From the NCBI GenBank assembly GCA_963798375.1, contig CAWCTG010000032.1, positions 72,232 to 136,231 on the forward strand: a stretch of 64,000 nt of DNA. The letters run 5' to 3'. Shown in pieces: positions 40,710 to 54,619 of this stretch. Each line of letters begins with the position of its first letter. The first letter of the stretch is position 1. Source of the stretch: Candidatus Binataceae bacterium. Its GTDB lineage: Bacteria; Desulfobacterota; Binatia; Binatales; Binataceae. Both the position numbers and the translations under genes were made by a program. The notes beneath the pieces are model-generated. The model had not been told where the DNA came from. It saw nothing but the letters and a program-made list of their open reading frames with translations, and did no database searches.

Positions 40710-40925
40710 ATGGACCTGTTTGCGCCAACTCACCTGCTGATCATTTTGCTGATCATTTTGGTCATCTTCGGGCCTAGCAAGCTCGGCGATGTCGGCGGCG
40801 CGATGGGCAAAGCGATTCGCGATTTCAAGCGCGCGATGAACGAGCCCGACGACGCCGCCAAGACGGTCGCGAAGACCGACGACGCCAAGGCGGCCGAGGC
40901 CGTAAAACCCGACAAACTTTCCTGA
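40710..40925 (+). CDS. tatA: Twin-arginine translocase subunit TatA/E
   Basis: MDLFAPTHLLIILLIILVIFGPSKLGDVGGAMGKAIRDFK. Confidence 0.9.
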   Translation: MDLFAPTHLLIILLIILVIFGPSKLGDVGGAMGKAIRDFKRAMNEPDDAAKTVAKTDDAKAAEAVKPDKLS

Positions 40926-41029
40926 CCCGCCGCGCTTCGCTGATTTTCCCGGACATTCGCACACTGCGCCTGCGATGACGCGCGTCATGAACGCGCGAGA
41001 TCCTTTCGATCCGCTCACTTTTCACTGCG

Positions 41030-41836
41030 TCACATGTTCAGGCATGCTTCGGCGGCGAGCGCGAACAGCCGCTCGCGGATCTGATGACGGTTCCAGTTGC
41101 GATGATCCCATCGGGCGCTTAGATCGTCCCCGCCATAGAGAATCTGTCCGAACTGGACGCCGCGGAACTGCGCGACGGCGAAGAAGGCCGCCGCTTCCAT
41201 CTCGACCGTGAGGCATCCTTCGCGCCTGCGCGAGAGCATCCGGGCGCGCGTCTCGCGGAACAGCCCGTCGGTAGTCCAGGTCTTGGCGACGATATAGTCG
41301 AGGCCGTTTCGCCTCAGGGTCTTTTCGATCGCCGCCAGGGCGCGCGGATGCGGCGCGACTTCACGCGCGGGCGGCAGGTAATGGTACGAAGTGCCCTCGT
41401 CGCGAATCGCAGCGGTCGGCACCACGATATGGCCGACCGCAATCTTCGAGTCGAGCACGCCCGCGCCGCCGCATGCGATGAACTTGCGCACGCCGCGCGC
41501 GATGCATCGATCGAGCATCGCAGCGGCCATCGGAGCGCCTATGCGCGGGTGAGCCACCGCCAGCCGCTTGCCGCCGAACTCGAGCTCGTAAACGGGATGG
41601 CGCCCCACTTCGCTGATCGCGTGATCGATCTCGCGGGCGCCGCCATTGAGGATGAGGTCGTCGATCACGTCCTGGAAGAAGCAGAGCACGCAATGCTTTG
41701 GCACGTCGATCGGTTTGTACACGCGGCGCGGCTCGATGATCGCAGTCGGTGAGGGATCGTATTCGAGGATGGGGAACGGACACGCGGGCCGGCGCTTTGG
41801 GACGCGATGGGGTGATTTAGGGTGACGCGGCTTCAT
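41030..41836 (-). CDS. PNP/UDP-family nucleoside phosphorylase-like protein
   Basis: Phosphorylase fold signature FIACGGAGVLD...TVEMEAAAF; ~269 aa from MKPRHPK. Confidence 0.55.
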   Translation of the reverse strand: MKPRHPKSPHRVPKRRPACPFPILEYDPSPTAIIEPRRVYKPIDVPKHCVLCFFQDVIDDLILNGGAREIDHAISEVGRHPVYELEFGGKRLAVAHPRIGAPMAAAMLDRCIARGVRKFIACGGAGVLDSKIAVGHIVVPTAAIRDEGTSYHYLPPAREVAPHPRALAAIEKTLRRNGLDYIVAKTWTTDGLFRETRARMLSRRREGCLTVEMEAAAFFAVAQFRGVQFGQILYGGDDLSARWDHRNWNRHQIRERLFALAAEACLNM

Positions 41837-42259
41837 GACGCGATAGTAGCAGGGGCCGGCCCCTGCACCCGAGTCAGGACGAGAAGAAGAGAGGCGGCGG
41901 AGGTTATCCTGAGTGAAGTCGAAGGCGCCGTTAGAAGGGCGGGGGTAAGGTCGCGAGCGGCGAGAGACGCCTGCTGCATTCAGCTCGATTCTCGCGGCGG
42001 CACTGGAAAGGCTGTGCAACAAACCCGCCTGGAAATCTTGCACAGGGGGGCCGTTTGGACTACAAGACGGGCTGAAATCATAGAGTAAAATGCGATTGCG
42101 AGGATTGTGACGGTATAAAATTTGCTTACTTGGCAGACCGAGGTTTTTAGAAAGATTAATGAGAGGGCATTTTCTCCAAGGATCACAAGGCCGCCGCCGA
42201 AGGATCCCAAAACCATGATGATTCTTTTGGATAGGATCGCATCGCCTTTTGGATACAGT

Positions 42260-42277
42260 TGTCCCGTTTTTGGGACA
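42260..42277. promoter_or_regulatory. Perfect 6-6-6 palindrome TGTCCC-gttttt-GGGACA ~60 nt upstream of the cytochrome operon; candidate operator
   Basis: Seen directly, in a low-GC promoter region that also has two CTTTTGGATA direct repeats (42222-42231 and 42247-42256). Confidence 0.3.
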
Positions 42278-42337
42278 GCTCGTCGTTGTGAGGAGCATGT
42301 GTAACCGCCGGCGGTAAGCCGCTAGACGGGCGCGCCT

Positions 42338-43395
42338 TTGCCGACGGCGGGCGCCCGAAATGGAGACGGCAATATGGAGGGGGAACGCAGCTCGCGAAAG
42401 TTTTGGGCAGGTCTTTTGGTGGCGCTGGTCGCGTTTGGAATCGCCTCCCTGGTTTCATCGCCCCCCGCAATCGGCATGGAAGGCACCCTGCTTTCCCAAG
42501 CCACAGGATCGGGGACCCGGCTACCGCCGGGCTATGTCCATAATGACACCTGCACCAGTTGCCATGATGTATCGGTCAAGTCCTTCCGCAAGACAATGAT
42601 GGGCCATCTTATGATGGGCCAGCCGCGCGACGAGGAGGAAGGCCTCGCGTGCCAGGCCTGTCATGGTCCCGGCCGCGAGCATCTACGCCATCCGAGCAAG
42701 CCGTCGCCGGGATTTCTGAGTTTTCGCGAGACCACCTTCACCGACATCAAGATTGAGAACGACCGGTGCCTCGCATGCCATCAAAACGGCGAGCGCGGGT
42801 TCTGGCGAGCCAGCGCCCACGCCGAGCGCGGCATTCGATGCGTTGATTGCCACGCCGTGATGTGTCCGGTGACGGCGAGCGCGCTGCCGCAGGCGCAACT
42901 CAAGAAGTCACCGCTTGGCACTGAATTCATCAACCCGTTCGTCGTGACGCGGCCCGAAACGCAGGTCTGCCTGCGCTGCCATCTCGACAAAAAGATGGAA
43001 ATCAATTTGCCGTCGCACATGCCGCTGCGCGAGGGGTTGATGACGTGCACCGACTGCCACAACCCGCACGGCGGACCGTATCAGAAGCAATTGCGGGCGG
43101 CGATGGTCAATGAGGTCTGCTACCGCTGTCATGCCGAAAAGCGCGGGCCGTTCCTCTGGATGCACGCGCCGGTGGCGATGAACTGCCTCAATTGCCATAT
43201 CCCGCACGGCAGCGTCAACCAGCACATGCTGGTGATCAACATGCCGGTGCTCTGCCAGCGCTGCCACATCGGCACCCGTCATCCGAGTGAGCCACAGAGG
43301 GGGGGTCAATTTTCGTGATCAACCAGCAATGCGCCAATTGCCATTCGCAGATACACGGCTCGAGCTCGCCGGGCGGGAGATATTTCACGCGCTGA
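42338..43395 (+). CDS. Periplasmic decaheme c-type cytochrome, MtrA/MtoA/PioA family. The reading frame is broken at the G7 run 43299-43305, which places the tenth CXXCH (CANCHSQIHGS) in the +1 frame.
   Basis: Nine CXXCH motifs in ORF 42338-43318 (CTSCH, CQACH, CLACH, CVDCH, CLRCH, CTDCH, CYRCH, CLNCH, CQRCH). The next frame reads INQQCANCHSQIHGSSSPGGRYFTR*, a typical MtrA-family C-terminus. N-terminal signal/anchor present. Confidence 0.8.
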
Positions 43396-43466
43396 AGCGG
43401 GAGGCAGAGGAACGCACGGCATCGCTGGGCCGCACCGCGTCTTGCAGCCGGCCCGGGAGGAAAGTC

Positions 43467-45722
43467 ATGAACCTGAAGCGGTTGTTAGCCGGATGTGGAA
43501 CGATGGCGCTCGTGTTGTCGATGCTTTCGCCGGCGCTGGCACAGGTCGATTTCGCGCAATTCACAGCGCAGGGTTCGGTCGAGGCCGGCGCCATTCCCCA
43601 GCCTGTCCCTTATACCAATGTCGCGGAGTATCAGCAGTACCGCGATCTGGCGCAGCAGTTCATCGTTCCGCAACTGCAGTTGATCCTGGGCGACAAGGCG
43701 GAGAACTACTACGTCCAGTTCGACGCCATCAACGTCGCGCAAAAGAACCAGATGTATTCGCTGCGCTTCGGCGAGTACGGTCTGCTCGATGTTCAGGCAA
43801 AATTCTTCGAGATTCCACACAACTTCAGCAACGGCATCGCGAGCACGCCGTACAACCAGGAAGGCGGCAACTTCACTCTATCCTCGAAGCCCACTGGTAC
43901 CGGCCCCGCGCTCGATTCCTGGCTGACAGCGAACGCCAAAACGTTCGACATGAGCCTGCTCGAAGGTGTCGCGGACATCGACGTGCGCTATACGCCGACG
44001 CCGTCGCTGACCTTCAGTGCGAACATGGATTACCAGAACCCCACCGGCCAACAGCCATTCGGCGGCTCCTTTCTGTTTGGCACCAGCCCGGGTACTTACA
44101 AAGTGAACGAACTGTTCCTGCCAATCCAGTACTACACCTATAACTTCGGCACCGGCATCGAATACGCGAAAAACGGATGGATGGTGGGTTTCCAGTACCA
44201 GGGGTCCTTCTTCGTCGACGACTACAGCACCCTGACCTGGGACAACCCCCTCAATACCAGCGGAGTAGGCAGCAAATGCGTTGATTCCACCGTTTTCACT
44301 TCCACCTCGCTCACCGGCCCCTGCCAGGGACGGGCAGCCATGTACCCGAACAACCAGGCTCACAACTTCATCGTGAACGGAACGGGTCAGCTTCCATTCA
44401 ACACACACGTGATGGGGAGCCTCGAGTACGGATTCTGGCTCCAGAACGCTCCCTTCATCCCGCTTACGGCCAACAGCAAGTTGCAGCAGTCATTAAGTTC
44501 GGTAGGAGCGCCTAATAGCCTCGGCGGCGACGTGCAGCCTTTCTTTGCCAACTTCACGATCGATAGCAATCCAATCGAACCGCTGGATCTAAAGGCGACC
44601 TATTCCTATTTCGATTACGACAACCTGACGCCGGCGATCACCTTCACAGGTGTTAAGTCGCTGAATGACGTAGCGGACGCGCAGACGCCTTTCACCGCTT
44701 ATCCCTTTGCATTCTCGGAGCAGGACGTCAGCCTCGAGCCAACCTACCGCCTGACTGATACTCTCGCCACACACTTTATGTTCAAGTGGCAGACCAACCA
44801 CAACGGCGGGCTGGAGGTGCTACAGCAGGATCAAACCAGCTACGGACCCGCGCTCGATTGGAACCCATACCCGTGGCTGACTTTCCGGGCGGACTACCAG
44901 CACGCGCACCGCGACTCGCCGGGATACAACAACAACCGCGCCAGCCTGGTCCAGGTGCTTGGCGGGACCCCGGGAGAGATCGAGGAGCTTCAGAGCCTCT
45001 GGCGGTTCGACGAGGCCACGCTCGATGTGAACCAGACCTCGCTCTATGCCTCCGCGCAGCCGATCGAACAACTCACGCTGTTCGCCGCCTTCAATTACGA
45101 CGACTATAACTACCCCAACAGCGACTTCGGCCTGGAGCACACTTCGGACTATTCGCCGTCGGTGGGGGCCAGTTGGGAACCGATGCCAGGCATGCACCTT
45201 TTTAGCGACTACTCCTGGCAGGCGTACGATTGGAACCTATGGTCACAGGACGAGACTACTATTCCGGCGGCGAAGCCTCCGCCTGGAAAAACGAACGCTT
45301 GGGAGGCCAGGGGCCGCAACCAGGGCAACAATATCGATTTCGGCACGGACATCGCGATACCGCCGAATCGCATTCTGCCGCGGCCGTCGCACCTGAAACT
45401 CCAGTACACCTACACGGTTGGCAACAACAGCACCCACCAATCGGGGGCTACCTCGGCCGGGGCGTCAGGGGAGGCGATCGACTATCCCGATGTCGGCAGC
45501 CAGTTCCAAGAGTTGATAATTCAGTACCAGTACGATTTGCTTGACAACCTGGCTATCAACGTCGGCTACTACTTCACTCACTCCAACGAAAACAATTTCA
45601 TGGTGGACAACATGAGGAACTACATGCCGAATGCAAGCGCAAATTCGACATTTCTCGGCAACACCGACATAGCTCCTTACAACGTCAATGTCGCATTCAT
45701 AACCCTGAAGTACAAATTTTAG
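43467..45722 (+). CDS. Large outer-membrane beta-barrel protein (~752 aa), MtrB/MtoB/PioB-like porin partner of the decaheme cytochrome
   Basis: Signal peptide MNLKRLLAGCGTMALVLSMLSPALAQ. Y/N/G/S/T/Q-rich with alternating amphipathic strands. Ends in an aromatic C-terminus ...AFITLKYKF. Sits immediately downstream of the MtrA-like gene. The listed ORF start 43287 is an artefactual upstream extension. Confidence 0.7.
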   Translation: MNLKRLLAGCGTMALVLSMLSPALAQVDFAQFTAQGSVEAGAIPQPVPYTNVAEYQQYRDLAQQFIVPQLQLILGDKAENYYVQFDAINVAQKNQMYSLRFGEYGLLDVQAKFFEIPHNFSNGIASTPYNQEGGNFTLSSKPTGTGPALDSWLTANAKTFDMSLLEGVADIDVRYTPTPSLTFSANMDYQNPTGQQPFGGSFLFGTSPGTYKVNELFLPIQYYTYNFGTGIEYAKNGWMVGFQYQGSFFVDDYSTLTWDNPLNTSGVGSKCVDSTVFTSTSLTGPCQGRAAMYPNNQAHNFIVNGTGQLPFNTHVMGSLEYGFWLQNAPFIPLTANSKLQQSLSSVGAPNSLGGDVQPFFANFTIDSNPIEPLDLKATYSYFDYDNLTPAITFTGVKSLNDVADAQTPFTAYPFAFSEQDVSLEPTYRLTDTLATHFMFKWQTNHNGGLEVLQQDQTSYGPALDWNPYPWLTFRADYQHAHRDSPGYNNNRASLVQVLGGTPGEIEELQSLWRFDEATLDVNQTSLYASAQPIEQLTLFAAFNYDDYNYPNSDFGLEHTSDYSPSVGASWEPMPGMHLFSDYSWQAYDWNLWSQDETTIPAAKPPPGKTNAWEARGRNQGNNIDFGTDIAIPPNRILPRPSHLKLQYTYTVGNNSTHQSGATSAGASGEAIDYPDVGSQFQELIIQYQYDLLDNLAINVGYYFTHSNENNFMVDNMRNYMPNASANSTFLGNTDIAPYNVNVAFITLKYKF

Positions 45723-45845
45723 GCCAAGCCTATTAAGGTACTTGGAGCGAGAGGCCGGAACACAAACAACGAATGACCTATCGTCCGCGGCGGCCCGGCC
45801 CGCAAACCAATTGGCGGACAAGGATTGTAAGGAAGGAGAGAAGCT

Positions 45846-46259
45846 ATGTCGAAGAGTTTGAGAACGAAGATTCGATCGAGACTCTGGATTTGGACCGCGT
45901 CGGCCATACCAGCAGTTGCAGTGCTGGCGTTGATCTCAACCTGCGCCCGCGCAGCCGATCTCACGGCCGCGGCCGGCAGTTACTCGGATACCTGCGCTAA
46001 GTGTCACGGCCCGGCCGGCAAGGGCGATGGCCCCAAAGCGGCCGAACTGAAAGACAAGGACGGCAAGCCGGTCACCATCGGAGATTTATCCGATTGTGCC
46101 AAGATGAGCAAGATAACCGATGACGACATGTTCAAGGAGCTGAAAGAGGGCGGCGCGTCAGTAGGCAAGAGCAAGTTCATGACTCCCTATGGCGATGCGA
46201 TGGAGGACGACGAGATCAAAGGGCTGGTCGCTTATGTCAGAACCTTGTGCAAGAAGTAG
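45846..46259 (+). CDS. Monoheme class-I cytochrome c, secreted (MtoD/Cyc1-like candidate periplasmic shuttle), paralog 1
   Basis: Signal peptide; single CAKCH; conserved C-terminus LVAYVRTLCKK. Confidence 0.8.
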   Translation: MSKSLRTKIRSRLWIWTASAIPAVAVLALISTCARAADLTAAAGSYSDTCAKCHGPAGKGDGPKAAELKDKDGKPVTIGDLSDCAKMSKITDDDMFKELKEGGASVGKSKFMTPYGDAMEDDEIKGLVAYVRTLCKK

Positions 46260-46280
46260 CGGCGCGCGCCACATCGGCGA

Positions 46281-46406
46281 TCGACTGTATCAATACTGGC
46301 ACCCGGTTCCATGAGTTGATATTTCAGTGCGAGTACGATTTTGCGCGATAACATCGCGTCATCGCAGGCTACTACTCCAGCAATTGTGGCGAACATAATT
46401 TCATGG
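46281..46406 (+). repeat. Degraded duplicate of the porin-gene 3' region (cf. 45480-45603), footprint of a tandem segmental duplication that generated the second monoheme cytochrome gene
   Basis: ~75% identity by direct alignment. Both cytochrome genes end ...tgcaagaagtagcggcgcgcgcca. Both have an AAGGAAGGAGAG-type SD. Confidence 0.7.
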
Positions 46407-46423
46407 AGGGAAGGAGAGGAGCA

Positions 46424-46825
46424 ATGAGAACTAAGATTCGATCGATACTGTGGGTTTGGACCGTGTCGGCCATACCGGCGGTTGCAGCGCTGGCGTTGAT
46501 CTCAACCGGCGCCCGCGCAGCCGATCTCACGGCCGCGGCCAGCAGTTACTCGGATACGTGCGCTAAGTGTCACGGCCCGCTCGGCAAGGGCGACGGCCCC
46601 AAAGCTGCCGAACTGAAAGACAAGGACGGCAAGGTGGTCCCCAGCGGAGATTTGTCCGATTGCGCCAAGATGGCCAAGGTTACTGACGACGACATGTTCA
46701 AGGAGCTCAAGGAAGGCGGCCAGGCGGTCGGCAAGAGCAAGTTCATGACTCCCTATGGCGACGCGATGGAGGACGACGAGATCAAGGCGATGGTTGCGTA
46801 CGTCAGAACCTTGTGCAAGAAGTAG
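46424..46825 (+). CDS. Monoheme class-I cytochrome c, paralog 2 (tandem duplicate of 45846-46259)
   Basis: MRTKIRSILWVWTVSAIPAVAALALIS...CAKCHGP...MVAYVRTLCKK; ~85% aa identity to paralog 1. Confidence 0.8.
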   Translation: MRTKIRSILWVWTVSAIPAVAALALISTGARAADLTAAASSYSDTCAKCHGPLGKGDGPKAAELKDKDGKVVPSGDLSDCAKMAKVTDDDMFKELKEGGQAVGKSKFMTPYGDAMEDDEIKAMVAYVRTLCKK

Positions 46826-47113
46826 CGGCGCGCGCCAGGCTCCAGAATGAGCCTCGGCGCGCGGGGTTGAAAGCGAGCAGTCTCAGGCAGCGGCCGGCTT
46901 GTAGTTCGCCGGCGGTGTCGCGCAGCAGTTGTACTCGCGCTCGCCCTGACCACTCAAAGCTGGCAAGTGAAAGGCCTCGCACTGGTAACCGGCTGAACCT
47001 CACCAGAGAGCGACCCAGGACAAGCGGGTCCGATCCCAGGGATCGGACCGCTTGCCGCTCGGAAACCGGGCGTCGCTTCCCCAGATTTTCGAGAGAAGCT
47101 ACGCAGGTGGAAT

Positions 47114-48655
47114 ATGCAAACGAGCGGAGATGAGCCGGGCGCACCGGGATCGGAGCGCCCGGCACGGCAAAATGGCGCCGAGGCCGAACGCCAATTACCA
47201 AGCCTGGCTCGCAACCGGCTGAGCATCGCCGGCCTGATCATCGCCGTCATCGTCTTGGCGGACATGGTTTCCCTGGCTGGCATGACGCTGCTAGGGGTGC
47301 AGTTGAACCCCTACGTCGGCATTTTTGCCTACCTGATCGGTCCGGCCGTCATGATATTCGGCCTGTTGCTCATTCCGGCCGGGATGGCACTCGAACGGCG
47401 ACGGCGCCGGAAGTTTCTGCCGGGTGAGCTGCCGCCCTTTCCCAAGCTCGATCTCAACGAGCCTTCGGTTCGGCGCGGCTTTCTCGGCGCGGTAGGCTTT
47501 TCGATGTTTTTTGTGGTTCTGAGCCTGGCGGCAAGCTACCAAGGCTACCAGTTCACGGACTCGGTGATGTTCTGCGGCCAGACCTGTCACGTCCCGATGA
47601 AGCCGGAATTCGACGCCTACCAGGATTCGCCGCACGCGCGGGTCGCATGCGCGGACTGCCACGTAGGACCCGGCGCCACTTGGTTTGTTCGCTCCAAGCT
47701 GTCGGGCGCCTATCAGGTCTATGCGGTAATGTTCAACAAGTACCCCAGACCGATTGAAACCCCCATCAAGGATTTGCGCCCGGTTCAGGCAGCCTGCGAG
47801 CAATGCCATTGGCCGCAGAAGTTCTACGGCGCGCAACTCAAGGTCTTCGCGCATTATGCCTACGACGAGAAGAACACGCCCACGCGCATCCAGATGCTGA
47901 TCAAGACCGGAGGAGGAGCTGCCGAGTTCGGCCGCGCCACCGGAATCCACTGGCACATGAACATCGCCAACCAAGTATGGTTCGCGGCTACTGACACGCA
48001 GTCCCAGGTGATTCCATGGGTGAAGGTAAGGACCCCCGACGGAAGGACCACGGAATACACTGCCAAGGGCACTTCGCTGACCCCAAAGCAGATTGCGGCG
48101 ATTCCCATCCAGACGATGGACTGTGTGAGCTGCCATGCCCGCCCGTCCCATAAGTTTCTTCCGCCCGATCAGGCGGTCGATGCGTCGTTCGAGGCGGGCC
48201 AGCTCGACCCTACGCTTCCCTTCTTGAAGAGGCAGGCGGTCAAGGCTCTGCTCAAGCGCTATGACACGTCGGAACACGCGACCGAGGGAATCGCCACCGC
48301 CCTCGATACCTTTTACCAGGATCGCTATCCCCAGATTTATGCCGCCAAGGCGCAGCAAATCGGGGCCGCCATTGCCGCCGTGCAGCACATCTACACAACC
48401 AACATCTTTTCGTTTATGCGGGTTGATTGGCGCACGCATCCCGATAACATCGGCCACCTTTATTACGCGGGATGCTTCCGCTGTCACGACGGGCAGCACG
48501 TCAGCGCCGATGGCCGGGTGATACCCCAGCAATGCGAAACCTGTCACACGGTCCTTGCATCTCCCAACAGTGTCGCCGAGTTCAAGCATCCAGTTGATCT
48601 GAACGATGTAGGCGGCGCGACCTGCAGCACCTGTCATACCGGAGGCGTCCTGTAA
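47114..48655 (+). CDS. Membrane-anchored heptaheme c-type cytochrome, NapC/NirT-related (ImcH-like candidate quinol/quinone oxidoreductase)
   Basis: Two N-terminal TM helices; seven CXXCH (CGQTCH, CADCH, CEQCH, CVSCH, CFRCH, CETCH, CSTCH); 513 aa. Confidence 0.7.
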   Translation: MQTSGDEPGAPGSERPARQNGAEAERQLPSLARNRLSIAGLIIAVIVLADMVSLAGMTLLGVQLNPYVGIFAYLIGPAVMIFGLLLIPAGMALERRRRRKFLPGELPPFPKLDLNEPSVRRGFLGAVGFSMFFVVLSLAASYQGYQFTDSVMFCGQTCHVPMKPEFDAYQDSPHARVACADCHVGPGATWFVRSKLSGAYQVYAVMFNKYPRPIETPIKDLRPVQAACEQCHWPQKFYGAQLKVFAHYAYDEKNTPTRIQMLIKTGGGAAEFGRATGIHWHMNIANQVWFAATDTQSQVIPWVKVRTPDGRTTEYTAKGTSLTPKQIAAIPIQTMDCVSCHARPSHKFLPPDQAVDASFEAGQLDPTLPFLKRQAVKALLKRYDTSEHATEGIATALDTFYQDRYPQIYAAKAQQIGAAIAAVQHIYTTNIFSFMRVDWRTHPDNIGHLYYAGCFRCHDGQHVSADGRVIPQQCETCHTVLASPNSVAEFKHPVDLNDVGGATCSTCHTGGVL

Positions 48656-48679: not shown

Positions 48680-50056
48680 GTGAGACAAATGACGCACGGA
48701 TCAGGGCGTATGGTTAGCTCAGGGCGGACGGTTAGCGGCCTCGGGCGCGCCGCGTGCGCTATTGCGGCAATGCTGCTGTACGCAGTTGCAACGGCGCAGG
48801 CCGCTCCGACCAAGGCCGCTCCGCCGAAGGCCGCTAAGACGACGAGAGCCGGTAAGACGACGAAAGCCGCTCCGGCGAAGCCGCTCACCGATAGCGATTG
48901 CCTGTCCTGTCATAATCTTAAGGCCAGCGCCAAGTTACAGGCGCGGCCGGTTAGCGTGTACGTCAATGCGGAGATATACCAGCCCTCGGTCCACGCGAAG
49001 CTGGGTTGTGTCTCCTGCCATTCTGACATCCATGCCTTTCCTCATCCCGATCCGGTCAAGCCGGTTTCCTGCGCCGGCTGCCACGCGAGTGAGACTTCGG
49101 CCTATGCGGGCAGCGTTCACGCTATCGCCGAGCGGGAGAAGAAGAGCCGCTTTCCGGCCTGTCTCAATTGTCACGGAAACCCCCACGGCCTCCGCGCCAA
49201 GACTGACCCGAAGTCGCGAGTTTACCCGCTCAACCTGCCGGGCACCTGCGGCACCTGCCACGGTAACCCCGAGCTTGCCAAGAAATATGGCTTGCCGGAC
49301 GTGTACCCGCTCTACATGGATTCGATTCACGGCTTCGCGCTGAGTGCCGACGGGCTCCTGGTGGCTGCCACCTGCAGCAAGTGCCATGGCGCGCACGATA
49401 TCCTCAGCCGAAAGGACCCGAAGAGCCGGATCTTCTATAAAAATGTGCCTGCCACCTGTGGCGCGTGCCATGCCGGCGTCGAAGTCGAGTACCTTGCCGG
49501 AGCGCACGGCGCGGCGATGATCGCCGGGCGCGCGAATGCTCCGGTATGCACGAATTGCCATACCTCGCATCAGATTACCCAGGTGGACGTCGCTAGCTGG
49601 CAAATCAAAACCGTCGCCACCTGCGGTAACTGTCACAAGACCAGGCTTAGGAGCTACGGCGATACTTTCCACGGCGAGGTGACCGAGCGCGGCTTCGTCT
49701 CCGCGGCGCAATGCTGGAGTTGCCATGGCGCTCACGAAGTTCTTAAGGCCTCCAATCCCAAGTCCAAGGTCGCGCCGGCCAACCTTCTCACCACCTGCGG
49801 CAAGTGCCACGTCGGCGCAACCGCTAGCTTTGTCAAGTACGATCCGCATCCCAATGCGCACGAGCGGCGGCGCAACCCGGCCCTGTATTACGCGGCTCTA
49901 TGCATGGGACTGCTGCGTTTGATTGACCCATTCGGACTGATGGCTGTTGGCGTGGTGCTCGCAATTACGCTCGCTCACGGAATCGGCCAGATCGTGCGGT
50001 ATAACACGGGGACGGACCACTCGGACTCTGACCGCCATTCGGGAGATGAAAAATGA
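48680..50056 (+). CDS. Undecaheme (11 x CXXCH) c-type cytochrome with Sec signal and C-terminal hydrophobic helix
   Basis: CLSCH, CVSCH, CAGCH, CLNCH, CGTCH, CSKCH, CGACH, CTNCH, CGNCH, CWSCH, CGKCH counted. Repeated ...DPKSR... spacing. C-terminal TM LYYAALCMGLLRLIDPFGLMAVGVVLAITLAH. Confidence 0.8.
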   Translation: MRQMTHGSGRMVSSGRTVSGLGRAACAIAAMLLYAVATAQAAPTKAAPPKAAKTTRAGKTTKAAPAKPLTDSDCLSCHNLKASAKLQARPVSVYVNAEIYQPSVHAKLGCVSCHSDIHAFPHPDPVKPVSCAGCHASETSAYAGSVHAIAEREKKSRFPACLNCHGNPHGLRAKTDPKSRVYPLNLPGTCGTCHGNPELAKKYGLPDVYPLYMDSIHGFALSADGLLVAATCSKCHGAHDILSRKDPKSRIFYKNVPATCGACHAGVEVEYLAGAHGAAMIAGRANAPVCTNCHTSHQITQVDVASWQIKTVATCGNCHKTRLRSYGDTFHGEVTERGFVSAAQCWSCHGAHEVLKASNPKSKVAPANLLTTCGKCHVGATASFVKYDPHPNAHERRRNPALYYAALCMGLLRLIDPFGLMAVGVVLAITLAHGIGQIVRYNTGTDHSDSDRHSGDEK

Positions 50057-50145
50057 CCTACGTCGTAGTTGATCCCGTAACGCGCATCGAGGGCCATCTA
50101 CGGATCGAAGCCGAGCTTGACGGCGGCAAGGTGAGGATTCTGTGA
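50053..50145 (+). pseudogene. 30-codon remnant of a [NiFe]-hydrogenase large subunit (N-terminal L1 motif fused to a short C-terminal tail), start/stop-coupled between the 11-heme cytochrome and cytochrome b
   Basis: MTYVVVDPVTRIEGHLRIEAELDGGKVRIL*. VVDPVTRIEGHLRIE matches the universally conserved N-terminus of NiFe hydrogenase large subunits (cf. E. coli HyaB LVVDPITRIEGHMRCEV). Its ATG overlaps the upstream TGA (ATGA) and its TGA overlaps the GTG of the cytochrome b gene. Confidence 0.65.
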
Positions 50146-50843
50146 GTGCGCCACCGCGGCTTGTGCCCGAGCCACCTGGCACTGGCCTTGTTTATGTCTG
50201 GCAACTGCCAGTGCGTTTGTCGCACTGGTTGATCGTCATATCGATAGCTGTGCTAGCGGTTACCGGCTACTTCATCGGCAATCCGTTAATAACAACCGGC
50301 GGACCTGCAAGGGATCGCATCGTCGCAGCCACCATGCGCAGCATCCATCTCTACGCCGCGTGGGTGTTTGGTGTGTCGGTGGTCGTGCGGGTTTACTGGA
50401 TGTTCGCCGGCAGTTACTACGCGCGTTGGGACCAGTTCATTCCGGTCTCGCGCGACCGGCTCAATAGCGTCTGGCAGGCGATGAGGTTTTATAGCTTCCA
50501 GCGCCGCGGCCCACAGCTTTATCCGGGTCATAGCGGCCTTGCCGCGCTGGCTTATACGGGCATCTTCATGATCTACTTTATGGAGATCGTCACCGGCCTG
50601 GCCCTGTACTTCATCTATGCTCCGGCGAATTCGGTCTTTCAGGGTTTTCGCTTTTTAGTCCCAATCTACTCTCGCTTTCTCCACCATATCGGGATGTGGA
50701 TCTTGTTGATGTTCGTGATTCAGCACGTGTACTCGACGATTCTTTTTTCGGTCGAGGAGCGCAGTGGAATCATCGACTCGATGTTCACAGGCTACAAGCG
50801 CATAAGCCCGGAAGCCGAGGAGGAGGCGCATCGCGATGCCTGA
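50142..50843 (+). CDS. Dihaem b-type cytochrome of the Ni/Fe-hydrogenase (HyaC/HydC/FdnI-like) family, membrane quinone-interacting subunit
   Basis: Four TM helices with conserved His (RLSHWLI..., IHLYAAW, HHIGMWILLMFVIQHVYS); family-typical R-x-x-H-W at TM1. Confidence 0.8.
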   Translation: MSAPPRLVPEPPGTGLVYVWQLPVRLSHWLIVISIAVLAVTGYFIGNPLITTGGPARDRIVAATMRSIHLYAAWVFGVSVVVRVYWMFAGSYYARWDQFIPVSRDRLNSVWQAMRFYSFQRRGPQLYPGHSGLAALAYTGIFMIYFMEIVTGLALYFIYAPANSVFQGFRFLVPIYSRFLHHIGMWILLMFVIQHVYSTILFSVEERSGIIDSMFTGYKRISPEAEEEAHRDA

Positions 50844-51954: not shown

Positions 51955-52368
51955 ATGGTCATGTCAGAAAATTCACCGGCGAAGATTCGATCGAAGGGCT
52001 GGAGCTGGACGCCCTTGGCGGCGGGAGTAGCGATGATGCTGGCGCCGGCATTGATCCCAACCGTCGTACGTGCCGCCGAAGTCGATCTGAAGGCCGCGGC
52101 CAGTAATTATTCGGATTCGTGCGTGGACTGCCATGGTGAGTCGGGCAAAGGCGACGGTAAAAAGGCGGCCGACCTGAAGGTCAAGCCCGCCGACTATACC
52201 AATTGCGCAGAGATGACGAAGTTGAGCGACGATTATCTCTTCAACGTCATCAAAAACGGCGGCAAGTCGGTGCACAAGAGCGAGGCCATGGCCGACTTCG
52301 GCAAGGCCTACGACGACGACGAGATTCACGGGCTTGTCGCCTACGTCCGCACGTTCTGCAAAAAGTGA
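51955..52368 (+). CDS. Monoheme class-I cytochrome c, third and more divergent paralog
   Basis: Signal peptide; CVDCHGESGKGDG; C-terminus LVAYVRTFCKK. Confidence 0.75.
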   Translation: MVMSENSPAKIRSKGWSWTPLAAGVAMMLAPALIPTVVRAAEVDLKAAASNYSDSCVDCHGESGKGDGKKAADLKVKPADYTNCAEMTKLSDDYLFNVIKNGGKSVHKSEAMADFGKAYDDDEIHGLVAYVRTFCKK

Positions 52369-52917
52369 GTGCGGCTAGCCGTGCCCGACGGTAATCGCGC
52401 ACAATTTGCGGTCTCGGAAGCCGGCGAAGTTATCGAGAGCGAACCGCGGCGGAAGTTCCTGGCGCGTCTGTTCTGGGGCGCGATGGCCATTGTCAGCGCC
52501 GCCATCGCGGCGCCCGTCATTTCCTATCTGATTATCCCGCTGTTGCGGCCGGGTGAGTCCAACGATTGGGTAAAGATGGGAAACATCGCCGACCTTCCGC
52601 TCAACCTTCCCCAGCGGCTCGAGGTCGGCCGGCGCGTGGTCGAGGGATGGGAAACGGACGATTCGCAGGTGACGGCCTGGGTGGTGCGGATGCCGGACAA
52701 AATCTACGTTTTCGATCCGCATTGCACGCACTTGGGATGCGCCTACCGATGGGTCGAGCAGGAAAAGCAGTTCTTCTGCCCATGCCATGCCGGCGTATTC
52801 AGCCTAACCGGGCAGGTGGTCAGCGGCCCTCCCCCACGTCCGCTGGACGTTTACGCGCACGAGGTCCGCGAGGGCGCCCTTTATGTGGTCCCGACTCCAA
52901 CTAAGCAAGTGGTTTGA
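52369..52917 (+). CDS. Rieske [2Fe-2S] iron-sulfur protein with twin-arginine signal
   Basis: RRKFLARL Tat motif; Rieske boxes CTHLGC and CPCHAGVF; GTG start directly after the upstream stop. Confidence 0.85.
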   Translation: MRLAVPDGNRAQFAVSEAGEVIESEPRRKFLARLFWGAMAIVSAAIAAPVISYLIIPLLRPGESNDWVKMGNIADLPLNLPQRLEVGRRVVEGWETDDSQVTAWVVRMPDKIYVFDPHCTHLGCAYRWVEQEKQFFCPCHAGVFSLTGQVVSGPPPRPLDVYAHEVREGALYVVPTPTKQVV

Positions 52918-54619
52918 CGAGCGCCTCGGCACGCGGGCGATCCGCGTCGCGCTCTTCGATCGCAACATTCCGAAAAGCAGCCCGCTGGTCGAGTGGATCT
53001 ACACGCTCGGCAGCGTGCTGCTGTTCTTTTTCATCCTTCAAGCAGTGACCGGCATGATGCTGGCGATGAACTATGTGGCCAGCCCCGATCACGCCTTCGA
53101 CGCCGCGCGTTACATCTCGCTGCGCGCTCCCATGGGCCAGTTCATCCGTGGGCTTCATTCGTGGGGCGCAACCGCGATGGTGGTGGTGATCGGCGCGCAC
53201 ATGCTGACCACCTTTCTCTCCGGCAGCTACAAGTATCCGCGCGAATCGACCTGGATTACCGGCGTCGTCCTGTTCCTGATCGTGATGTTGTTCGGATTCA
53301 CCGGATATCTGCTGCCCTGGAACCAGAAGTCGTACTGGGCGACCGTGGTCGGCACCAACATCGCGGGCGCGACTCCCTACATCGGGCAGTACATCGTGCG
53401 CTTCTTCCGCGGTGGCAGCGAGGTCGGCCCGCAAACGTTGACCAGATTCTACGCCCTGCACGTGCTGATGCTGCCGGCGGCGCTGATCGTTTTCGTCTCG
53501 GTGCATCTTTTCATGGTCGTGCGCCAGGGCATCTCGGCGCCTCCCAAGCGGCATCCCGAATACGGCCGCCACGGTATCAACGCCCAGCTCGGCATCGACC
53601 CCGGGCTTGGTGTCGGCACCCAGCTCAGCGTCGACGACCAGCGCAGCCGGGCGGCCGACGAATATCATCACGAGAAAGAGGCCGGCGAGTCCTTCTATCC
53701 GTTTTATCTGTCCAAAGACGCTGTCGCCGTGCTGCTGGCGCTTTCGGTGCTGGTGATTTTGGTCTTGAAGTATCCGGCCGAGATCGGCGAGATCGCCGAC
53801 CCCGCCAGCACCAGCTACAATCCGCGCCCGGACTGGTACTTCCTGTTCCTGTTCCAGGCGCTCAAGTATTTTCCCGGCAGCATGGAATCGGTCGCGGCAG
53901 TCATGCTGCCGGGGCTTGCGTTGCTGGTCCTCGTCACAGTGCCCTTCTTCGATCGGCGGATGCGCCAGCATCCGCTGGACCGCCCGATCGCAACCGGCTT
54001 TGCGCTCTCCACGCTGGTCGGCGTGATCGCGTTGACCGTGATCGGCGCGCGATCGCCGCTGCTCAACCCATATGTGCCGGAGCTGCCGACCGTCGCCGAG
54101 GGTCACCGGCTCTTTCACACGCTCAATTGCGCATACTGCCACGCCGTCAATGGCCGCGGGAGCAGGATTGGGCCCGATCTGATGCTGGATCCCCTCAAGC
54201 ACGACAAGGCTTGGATAGTCCTCCATCTCGAGCGGCCCGGCGAAGTCTTTCGGCCCGGCGCCCGCACCGCAATGACCGGATTGTTGCCGGAGGAAAGCGC
54301 GGACCTGTTCGACTACATCAATGAGCTGCAGGGCGGCGGCCCCTATAGCGACAAGGCGTCCCGGCTGTTCTACCGAAATTGCGGCAAGTGCCACATGGTG
54401 GCAGGCCACGGCGGCGCCAAGGCTCCCGATCTGAGCGGAATCGGGCTGGTGCGGTCGGTTTCGTTCATCCACCGCTACATCGAGGATCCGAAGGCCCTCT
54501 ACAGCCAGACCAAGATGCCGCCGTTCTTGCAGCCGCAGGGCAAGCTGACCCACCCCGAAATCGAGGACATCGCGCGCTTTCTCGCGCATCAGCGCACACC
54601 GGCGCCACCTAAAAACTGA
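52883..54619 (+). CDS. Cytochrome b (b6 plus subunit-IV-like, fused) with a C-terminal dihaem cytochrome c domain: the cytochrome b/c subunit of a Rieske/cyt b complex
   Basis: Cytochrome b6 N-terminus LSKWFDERLG; haem-ligating His in TM helices; PEWY-like region PDWYFLFLFQALK; two C-terminal CXXCH (CAYCH, CGKCH). Confidence 0.85.
   Translation: MWSRLQLSKWFDERLGTRAIRVALFDRNIPKSSPLVEWIYTLGSVLLFFFILQAVTGMMLAMNYVASPDHAFDAARYISLRAPMGQFIRGLHSWGATAMVVVIGAHMLTTFLSGSYKYPRESTWITGVVLFLIVMLFGFTGYLLPWNQKSYWATVVGTNIAGATPYIGQYIVRFFRGGSEVGPQTLTRFYALHVLMLPAALIVFVSVHLFMVVRQGISAPPKRHPEYGRHGINAQLGIDPGLGVGTQLSVDDQRSRAADEYHHEKEAGESFYPFYLSKDAVAVLLALSVLVILVLKYPAEIGEIADPASTSYNPRPDWYFLFLFQALKYFPGSMESVAAVMLPGLALLVLVTVPFFDRRMRQHPLDRPIATGFALSTLVGVIALTVIGARSPLLNPYVPELPTVAEGHRLFHTLNCAYCHAVNGRGSRIGPDLMLDPLKHDKAWIVLHLERPGEVFRPGARTAMTGLLPEESADLFDYINELQGGGPYSDKASRLFYRNCGKCHMVAGHGGAKAPDLSGIGLVRSVSFIHRYIEDPKALYSQTKMPPFLQPQGKLTHPEIEDIARFLAHQRTPAPPKN

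Follow-up and report, generated by a model that had tools for sequence, protein, structure and literature searches.

The pairing of an MtrA/DmsE-type decaheme cytochrome with an MtrB/PioB-type porin is known from PioABC of Rhodopseudomonas palustris, in which PioC is a high-potential iron-sulfur protein (HiPIP), and from MtrCAB of Shewanella. The Mto cluster of Sideroxydans lithotrophicus ES-1 (mtoA, mtoB, mtoD, imoA/cymA-ES1, and pmcA) includes 2 monoheme cytochromes that differ in potential and in partners, in that MtoA and ImoA are bound by PmcA (about -143 mV) and not by MtoD (+155 mV) (PMC13390432, PMC4412085). MtoD (Slit_2498) has bis-His axial ligation through His47 and His95 (PMC4412085), and the tetraheme STC and the flavocytochrome FccA are Shewanella periplasmic proteins that were produced for interaction tests (PMC13390432). 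We analyzed a locus of similar gene content in a stretch of 64,000 nucleotides (nt) from contig CAWCTG010000032.1, the whole of which is called the window below. The locus is an electron-transfer gene cluster of Candidatus Binatus (Binatota), an uncultured soil bacterium, Candidatus Binatus and Binataceae being the names borne by homologs of the cluster proteins. Between its 2 tandem monoheme cytochrome c genes lies a decayed piece of the adjoining porin gene, and this remnant and the duplication that left it are the subject of this report.

The cluster runs from an MtrA-type decaheme cytochrome through an MtrB/PioB-type porin, the 2 monoheme cytochromes c, a NapC/NirT-type cytochrome, and an 11-heme cytochrome (all on the plus strand) to a cytochrome b. 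It thus resembles the Mto cluster in joining a decaheme cytochrome, a porin, 2 monoheme cytochromes, and a NapC/NirT-family protein, but it belongs to another phylum and differs from it in several respects. The 2 Binatus cytochromes are paralogs of each other (88% amino acid identity), whereas those of ES-1 are unrelated; an axial Met is invariant in the Binatus proteins, whereas MtoD is bis-His ligated (PMC4412085), and the match to the MtoD structure 4XXL reaches only E=0.07; and the Binatus NapC-like protein is not a tetraheme cytochrome but has 513 residues with 6 to 7 heme motifs and is followed by the 11-heme cytochrome and cytochrome b. The MtrA/DmsE and MtrB/PioB gene pair is shared with PioABC and MtrCAB, but no MtrC/OmcA-type outer decaheme cytochrome stands beside the Binatus pair, and the Binatus carrier is a class I cytochrome c, in contrast to the HiPIP (PioC) or STC/FccA of those systems. 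Cytochrome c partners of bc-type complexes and alternative complex III (ACIII), namely ActE, CcoP domains, and cytochrome c552, include the best structural matches, and a third paralog of the Binatus cytochromes lies beside Rieske and cytochrome b genes; copies 1 and 2, however, adjoin the NapC-type module with no bc complex and have 2 extra invariant cysteines (C84 and C135). As a structure, the locus is like concerted tandem arrays that bear scars of flanking genes, with its direct repeat, junction, truncated pseudogene, microhomology deletion, and conversion tracts. It does not differ from them in kind, and the duplication adds one more case of a familiar process to an otherwise ordinary course of genome evolution; what is unusual is a clean scar kept across species and a second junction type within the genus.

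An old tandem segmental duplication within the Binatus electron-transfer cluster, of which the feature is a molecular fossil, is in our view the likely explanation. Its parts are as follows, with the slash marking the predicted signal-peptidase site.

43467..45722, plus strand: MtrB/PioB-family outer-membrane beta-barrel porin, 751 residues from MNLKRLL (PF11854, 253 bits, E=8.7e-75)
45473..45606, plus strand: source segment, the porin codons copied in the duplication (direct repeat at offset 803, 91/134 identical)
45723..45845, plus strand: porin-to-cytochrome intergenic region with the Shine-Dalgarno (SD) sequence AGGAAGGAGAG (the upstream 130 nt were compared across lineages, including L090)
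45846..46259, plus strand: cytochrome c copy 1, 137 residues, signal peptide ...ARA/AD (PF00034, PF13442, family alignment)
46260..46275, plus strand: duplication junction, consisting of CGGCGCGCGCCA (12 nt) and the filler CATC (4 nt) (sequence comparison)
46276..46409, plus strand: pseudogenized copy of porin codons 45473-45606, with a frameshift and an in-frame TAA (repeat search, remnant alignment)
46407..46423, plus strand: copied SD region AGGGAAGGAGAGGAGCA, matching 45829-45845 (repeat family, alignment)
46424..46825, plus strand: cytochrome c copy 2, 133 residues (list of open reading frames, profile search, alignment)
46826..46866, plus strand: GC-rich hairpin after copy 2, CGGCGCGCGCCAGGCTC-CAGAAT-GAGCCTCGGCGCGCGGGG, without a T-run, kept in all lineages

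Three repeat blocks lie colinearly, comprising the porin fragment (offset 803), the SD region (offset 578), and the cytochrome gene together with 12 flanking nt on its 3' side (offset 566). The repeats are thus head to tail and in colinear order, with a discrete junction at 46271/46276, as in a tandem duplication. The porin repeat keeps its offset of 803 nt over 45473-45538/46276-46341 (80%) and 45556-45606/46359-46409 (71%), and 91 of 134 positions (68%) are identical without gaps, or about 73% (distance 0.27) with gaps allowed. When the 134-mer was slid over both strands of the 64-kb window, the background had a mean of 33 and a standard deviation of 5.4, with the best unrelated position at 58/134. 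A decayed porin copy, which an earlier note had placed at 46281-46406 and which a similarity below chance for GC-rich sequence would have called into question, is therefore confirmed far above chance and with slightly wider limits, 46276-46409. The poorly matching core at 45539-45555 is explained by a +1 insertion and then a -1 deletion in the remnant, together with a later change in the window's own porin.

The cytochrome genes share 360 of 402 nt (89.6%), their proteins 118 of 134 residues, and both end in the same 36-nt block GTCAGAACCTTGTGCAAGAAGTAGCGGCGCGCGCCA (46236-46271 and 46802-46837), which runs 12 nt past the stop codon, so that the identical ending of the 2 genes reported earlier also holds. 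Copy 2 lacks 4 N-terminal codons (SKSL, 12 nt), a deletion confined to the lineage of the window and L096 (related loci bear L numbers), and its reading frame opens also at an upstream ATG, 46403 (140 residues).

The unit proposed in that note, the porin 3' end with the intergenic region and the cytochrome gene, followed by a deletion, can now be delimited: it starts at 45473, ends 12 nt past the cytochrome stop codon, and lost about 225 nt. The CGGCGCGCGCCA that follows copy 1 is the 5' arm of the hairpin that stands after copy 2. Only these first 12 nt of the hairpin are duplicated behind copy 1, where filler and porin sequence then follow, which places the right breakpoint inside the hairpin and the left at porin position 45473. 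At its other end, the remnant stops at ...TTCATGG (46400-46406) and runs without a gap into the copied SD region. In relatives, the microhomology ATGG is found in both flanks, TTCATGG/TGG in the porin and GGAATGG/AAGGAAGGAG in the intergenic region (the slash here marks the end of the microhomology), and the lost stretch of about 225 nt (803 minus 578) comprises porin 45604-45722 and the intergenic region up to the SD. The comparisons show that a segment reaching from porin position 45473 into the 5' arm of the hairpin, 12 nt beyond the cytochrome stop, was duplicated in tandem, and that about 225 nt were then deleted at the ATGG microhomology, so that 134 nt of porin became fused to the SD of cytochrome copy 2. 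The porin fragment gained its frameshift and stop codon and then drifted at the neutral rate, with duplication, deletion, and decay all preceding the divergence of the Binatus lineages that now carry it, and both cytochrome genes have been retained by purifying selection and partly homogenized by gene conversion.

The comparisons that bear on this history cover 12 distinguishable lineages among the matches listed in 2 contig-collection scans and exact-protein look-ups (mostly the latter). Read in the porin frame, the window's remnant is interrupted by a TAA, and its differences are spread evenly over codon positions (13/17/13); it is a pseudogene. The window, L096/97, L086-89/L098-99, and L095 all have the junction CGGCGCGCGCCA, 4 nt, and GGCGATCGA... 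in one position, and it follows the pattern CGGCGCGCRCCA-N4-GGCRATCG. When the remnants of 5 loci were aligned with the porin segments of 9 lineages, they formed a single clade against all porins (bootstrap 100%), and the +1 insertion and TAA stop are common to the remnants of all lineages carrying one; the -1 deletion in the window's remnant came later than the shared insertion. The remnants also keep ancestral porin codons (TTGCGCGACAAC..., ...AACAATTTCGGCGAACAC...) that are still found in the porins of L086, L006, and L094 and are altered in the window's own porin.

Lineages sharing the junction and remnant differ by a proportion of synonymous differences (pS) of 0.22-0.25 in porin and napC (synonymous divergence, dS, 0.25-0.30), with pS taken from the 3' 1,500 nt of the porin gene and, for the window against L086, also from napC. 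Remnant distance follows pS closely, at 0.22 against 0.22-0.24 between the window and L086, 0.10 against 0.084 between the window and L096, and 0.05 against 0.075 between L086 and L098. Since the same junction is found in diverged lineages and the remnants have diverged equally, the event is older than their split, and the remnant is a neutrally drifting, vertically inherited fossil. For a duplication in an electron-transfer cluster from an uncultured phylum, the scar gives the relative age and pins down the breakpoints.

The same data bear on whether the remnant has been co-opted as an intercistronic element, for example as an RNA stem-loop, CGCGAT-AAC-ATCGCG, tuning the expression ratio of the 2 cytochromes, which we regard as very improbable. 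The remnant is kept at full length (134 nt) in several lineages, and the small palindrome (about 46344-46358) is found in all remnants and is 1 base pair longer than in the porin source. However, the palindrome was inherited from porin codons (CGCGACAACCTCGCG), the remnants diverge at the synonymous rate with no constraint detectable, and 7 lineages do without a remnant. In predicted folding energy, the spacer does not surpass shuffled sequences (z = -0.14 in the window and -1.8 in L095), no Rfam family matches, and no promoter or terminator consensus was called on the plus strand between the cytochrome genes. An intrinsic terminator between the genes was accordingly rejected, and the terminator consensus scan does not call the hairpin after copy 2 either. 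A sigma-54 promoter in the remnant or intergenic region, sought because the cluster has a gene for a sigma-54 activator farther upstream, was also rejected: the pattern TGGCAC-N5-TTGC with 1 mismatch was not found near 40900-47100, nor is it enriched across the window, and other lineages do not keep the TGGCAC of the window's remnant.

Very improbable, too, is an independent and fairly recent duplication of the cytochrome in each lineage, although the whole-gene tree, in which copies 1 and 2 of L090, L007, and L095 pair within their genomes, and a mean within-genome paralog dS of 0.31, below the ortholog dS of 0.41-0.45, could be read in this way. A paralog dS below the ortholog dS is impossible for an old duplication without conversion and indicates concerted evolution. 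The pattern is the classical signature of gene conversion. At variable sites, lineage-specific states present in both copies of one genome stand beside paralog-specific states shared across lineages; over the 5' 200 nt, within-genome identity (0.888) exceeds that of orthologs (0.854 and 0.859), whereas in the middle segment the copy 1 orthologs are most alike (0.911), and in a tree from the middle 130 nt copy 1 clusters across lineages, with weak support. The remnant junction is moreover identical in 3 to 4 lineages and the porin-free spacer of other lineages, described below, is alignable across 7, and the same breakpoints, +1 insertion, and stop codon would not recur in separate events.

The note had called the duplication recent and had seen in it an ongoing dosage amplification of the putative shuttle in the periplasm, an account that we now consider very improbable. 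In its favor are the 89.6% identity of the genes with their identical 36-nt 3' end, the copies of L095, which are 98.8% identical, and verrucomicrobial relatives with up to 4 copies per locus. Against a recent date, the window paralogs differ by dS 0.29 (nonsynonymous divergence, dN, 0.068; dN/dS 0.23; Nei-Gojobori), and the junction and equally drifted remnants occur in the lineages at pS 0.22-0.25 compared above. Against amplification, variation in copy number was looked for in related strains and the number was constant: exactly 2 tandem cytochrome genes stand at the locus in 12 of 12 related lineages and in each of 5 independent assemblies of the window's own population, which agree at 99-100% over this region. 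Purifying selection acts on both copies, with dN/dS across lineages of 0.14 (copy 1) and 0.22 (copy 2), and it extends to paralog-specific residues. In L095 (234-1226), the copies are identical at 409 of 414 nt, with a single amino acid difference, next to an old, decayed remnant, which indicates recent gene conversion and no new duplication. The 2-copy state is old, fixed, and selected, with no sign of present amplification. An assembly artefact, whether a mis-join or a collapsed repeat in the metagenome contig, has next to no chance of being the explanation, for despite a likely homopolymer error elsewhere in the window (an mtrA frameshift at a G7 run) and split genes in related metagenome-assembled genomes (MAGs), the same arrangement recurs base for base in 5 independent contigs from different samples (L001-L005) and, diverged as expected, in assemblies of other lineages from JGI, ENA, and NCBI.

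Recombination between lineages has also reached the cluster. Between 42280 and about 45200, L002 and the window share about 90% identity, and from about 45270 to 47975 they share 100%, which marks a sharp recombination breakpoint inside the porin gene, and closely related populations carry mosaic versions of the cluster. The locus thus shows gene conversion and inter-lineage recombination at work, and both processes blur its history.

That history is further complicated by the presence of 2 spacer types between the cytochrome genes. Type P, of 154-165 nt, contains the porin remnant and is found in the window, L096/97, L086-89/L098-99, and L095. Type S, of 97-114 nt, is free of porin sequence, mutually alignable, and built around the core TTTTGCCNACGGCAGGCACCCC; it is found in 7 lineages, L094, L006, L007/L100 (Ca. 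Binatus soli), L102, L110, L090-93/L113, and L101, some of which are without any mtrA or mtrB (L090-93, L113). Of the 3' flank, type S keeps about 20 nt (p = 0.003 in L090) and type P 12 nt. Since type S keeps more flank and porin sequence is found in type P, deletion alone could not have turned either type into the other, and at least 2 duplication junctions exist in the genus. In type P, the second gene combines a copy-1-type SD with copy-2-type coding signatures, where the signatures are KPV[AT]IG in copy 1 of all lineages and K[VL]V[PA][STC]G in copy 2 of both spacer types.

The earlier attribution of the cytochrome pair to the duplication thus stands in part. Tandem segmental duplication did take place, but the pair probably did not arise from the porin-carrying event alone, because 7 lineages have 2 copies with a porin-free spacer, including some without mtrA and mtrB. 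Given the copy-1-type SD next to copy-2-type coding signatures and the S spacer elsewhere, the array probably passed through a 3-gene state. In the simplest such course of events, an older cytochrome pair would have been followed by a second duplication of the porin 3' end, the intergenic region, and copy 1, giving 3 genes that recombination or deletion would have brought back to 2. The patchy distribution of types P and S would then reflect differential resolution of the 3-gene ancestor, recombination between lineages, or both.

Several points weigh against the history set out here. Neither a 3-gene array nor an array with both spacer types was found among the loci of the 12 lineages, so that the intermediate is known by inference. 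In the porin tree, type P is not monophyletic, and L006, of type S, is sister to L086/L098 at 100%; the porin tree is itself affected by recombination. The orthology of copy 2 across spacer types is drawn from the signature residues and the 130-nt tree, in which the clade of all copies 1 has a bootstrap of 15%. As judged from sequence comparison, the origin of the S spacer does not appear reconstructable from intergenic similarity: its first approximately 20 nt match the 3' flank (p 0.003-0.04 in 4 lineages, local alignment against shuffles), but we dropped a derivation from about 50 nt of 3' flank and a decayed intergenic copy, the intergenic part being not significant against shuffles (p 0.29-0.92). 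Finally, the function proposed below is drawn from gene context and from the work on Sideroxydans (PMC4412085, PMC13390432).

The 2 small cytochromes score above the cut-offs of PF00034 (37.7 and 39.9 bits for copies 1 and 2, cut-off 21.3) and PF13442 (32.6 and 33.6 bits, cut-off 27). Each has a single CXXCH motif (CAKCH), at residues 50-54 in copy 1 and 46-50 in copy 2, and this motif is invariant in 37 family members. Met112, also invariant in the family alignment and aligned with the ligand-Met region of CcoP domains, would be the distal axial ligand of a His/Met class I cytochrome, and Cys84 and Cys135, 2 invariant cysteines beyond the heme motif, probably form a disulfide. The AlphaFold2 (AF2) model, built with 37 sequences, has a pLDDT of 81.7 and an all-alpha class I fold, with the best structural matches to c552 of Thioalkalivibrio, ActE of ACIII, and Kuenenia kustc0457 (query-normalized TM-score 0.55-0.59) and further matches to c6 structures, so the proteins are modeled as generic class I (His/Met) cytochromes c.

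Homology to MtoD was rejected. In a phmmer comparison, 4XXL reached E=0.072 and 16 bits, with only the signal and CXXCH region covered; 10 other PDB cytochromes outscore MtoD, which is outside the top 50 Foldseek matches. The sole invariant His of the family is His54 of the CXXCH motif, and no second conserved His is present for MtoD-type bis-His ligation. The gene order mtrA-mtrB-cyt-cyt-napC-like does present an MtoD-like position, and the small cytochromes hold that position but fall outside the MtoD family. A lipoprotein difference between the copies was likewise rejected, the cysteine in question occurring only in the lineage of the window and L096, with a poor lipobox. That cysteine is at residue 33 of copy 1, 4 residues before the predicted signal-peptidase site (ISTC-ARA/AD), and the position is A, T, G, or V in copy 2 and in other lineages.

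The cytochrome pair also occurs apart from the outer-membrane conduit. The monoheme cytochromes, NapC-like protein, and 11-heme cytochrome occur as a module without MtrAB in L090-93, L113, and Verrucomicrobia, and MtrAB occurs without an adjoining module in L028, a more distant Binataceae genome; the MtrAB conduit and the inner-membrane module are separable. About 85 nt of the porin-to-cytochrome intergenic region are kept even in the porin-less lineages, and the approximately 85 nt 5' of the first cytochrome gene in the L090 lineage are homologous to this region of the window. On present sequence comparisons, the cytochrome pair is best seen as belonging first to the module of NapC-like, multiheme, and cytochrome b proteins, with or without MtrAB. 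This separability matters when MtrAB-type clusters in metagenomes are taken as markers of iron oxidation.

In the L090 lineage (gene at 3473-4414 in L090), tatA is followed after about 620 nt by the 2 cytochrome genes and the NapC-like gene, with no mtrA or mtrB. In verrucomicrobial MAGs (L035-L040), members of the cytochrome c family, 1 to 4 per locus, precede NapC-like homologs (40-43% identity); in L035 and L039 an 11-heme protein follows (36-39% identity), and L035 has 2 NapC-like genes. The NapC-like module is found in more than one phylum and is prone to duplication.

From their gene context, the 2 cytochromes are taken to be soluble periplasmic carriers, which probably link an MtrAB-type conduit, other periplasmic donors, or both to the NapC-type/cytochrome b module and a bc-type complex. 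The retention of 2 diverged and selected copies would fit specialization for partners or potentials better than it would fit dosage, and the old, stable, selected 2-copy state points to 2 specialized periplasmic carriers, a hypothesis for which Sideroxydans provides the precedent. A bolder proposal, to which we give a minor but real chance, combines 2 parts: the paralogs may split one job, with one acting as the carrier from MtrAB to the NapC/cytochrome b module and the other feeding a high-potential branch (a bc-type complex or oxidase), and a repeatedly resolved 3-gene state may have left the 2 spacer types. If this is true, Candidatus Binatus, an abundant uncultured lineage of soil and peat, would be an unrecognized user of a branched chain for extracellular electron uptake (Fe(II) oxidation).

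The remaining genes of the cluster and its surroundings are as follows.

42338..43318, plus strand: MtrA/DmsE-family decaheme c-type cytochrome (TIGR03508, 205 bits, cut-off 192; PF09699 and others match)
47114..48655, plus strand: NapC/NirT-family membrane multiheme cytochrome, 513 residues (PF03264, 40 bits, cut-off 24)
48680..50056, plus strand: 11-heme cytochrome with a C-terminal membrane segment (heme-motif count, profile search)
50142-50843: Ni_hydr_CYTB-type cytochrome b, the next gene after the 11-heme cytochrome (profile search)
51955..52368, plus strand: third, older paralog of the small cytochrome c, 56% identical (family alignment)

The porin gene adjoins the decaheme gene; its PF11854 match spans residues 56-751, and TIGR03509 scores 202 bits, under its cut-off of 240. 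The MtrA-type gene has 9 CXXCH motifs in frame, and the tenth (CANCH) is located in a shifted frame. Compared with its relatives, the gene is 1 nt short near the G7 run at 43299-43305, so that the last 28 codons pass into another frame that ends at 43395; in L002 and L086, the protein has 340 residues with all 10 heme motifs in one frame. The frame break is either a homopolymer error of the assembly or a true frameshift. The NapC-like protein has 6 CXXCH motifs and one CX4CH, hydrophobic N-terminal segments, and its PF03264 match at residues 126-210, and is a larger relative of the NapC/NirT family without the canonical tetraheme arrangement.

The third paralog lies directly 5' of a Rieske gene (52369-52917) and a cytochrome b/c fusion gene (52883-54619), and its pairing with Rieske and cytochrome b genes is also found in many Binataceae loci (L008-L031). 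It has the same C-terminal YVRTFCKK as the small cytochromes, and the downstream cytochrome b is fused to a diheme cytochrome c domain. Solitary cytochromes resembling copy 2 were identified in unrelated contexts (L111/L112, 3001-3414; L114, 3001-4023), with one of them (L111) near genes for a P-type ATPase and a Usp protein and a fragment of an rve_3 transposase, and another beside a DUF992 gene and an unannotated open reading frame of 137 residues.

Split or frameshifted genes for cytochrome copy 2, the NapC-like protein, and the porin were found in L006 (6513-6924), L094 (5215-6703), L088 (1623-3879), and L110 (1106-2879). These probably reflect homopolymer errors of long reads, and the gene calls in these related assemblies should not be taken as pseudogenes unchecked.

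At the head of the cluster, tatA (40710-40925) is separated from the MtrA-type gene by about 1.4 kb (40926-42337) containing a minus-strand open reading frame, 41030-42298, part of which, by eye, we take to resemble a nucleoside phosphorylase. In L002 and L090, only about 620 nt stand in place of this 1.4 kb, an insertion or deletion difference between the loci.

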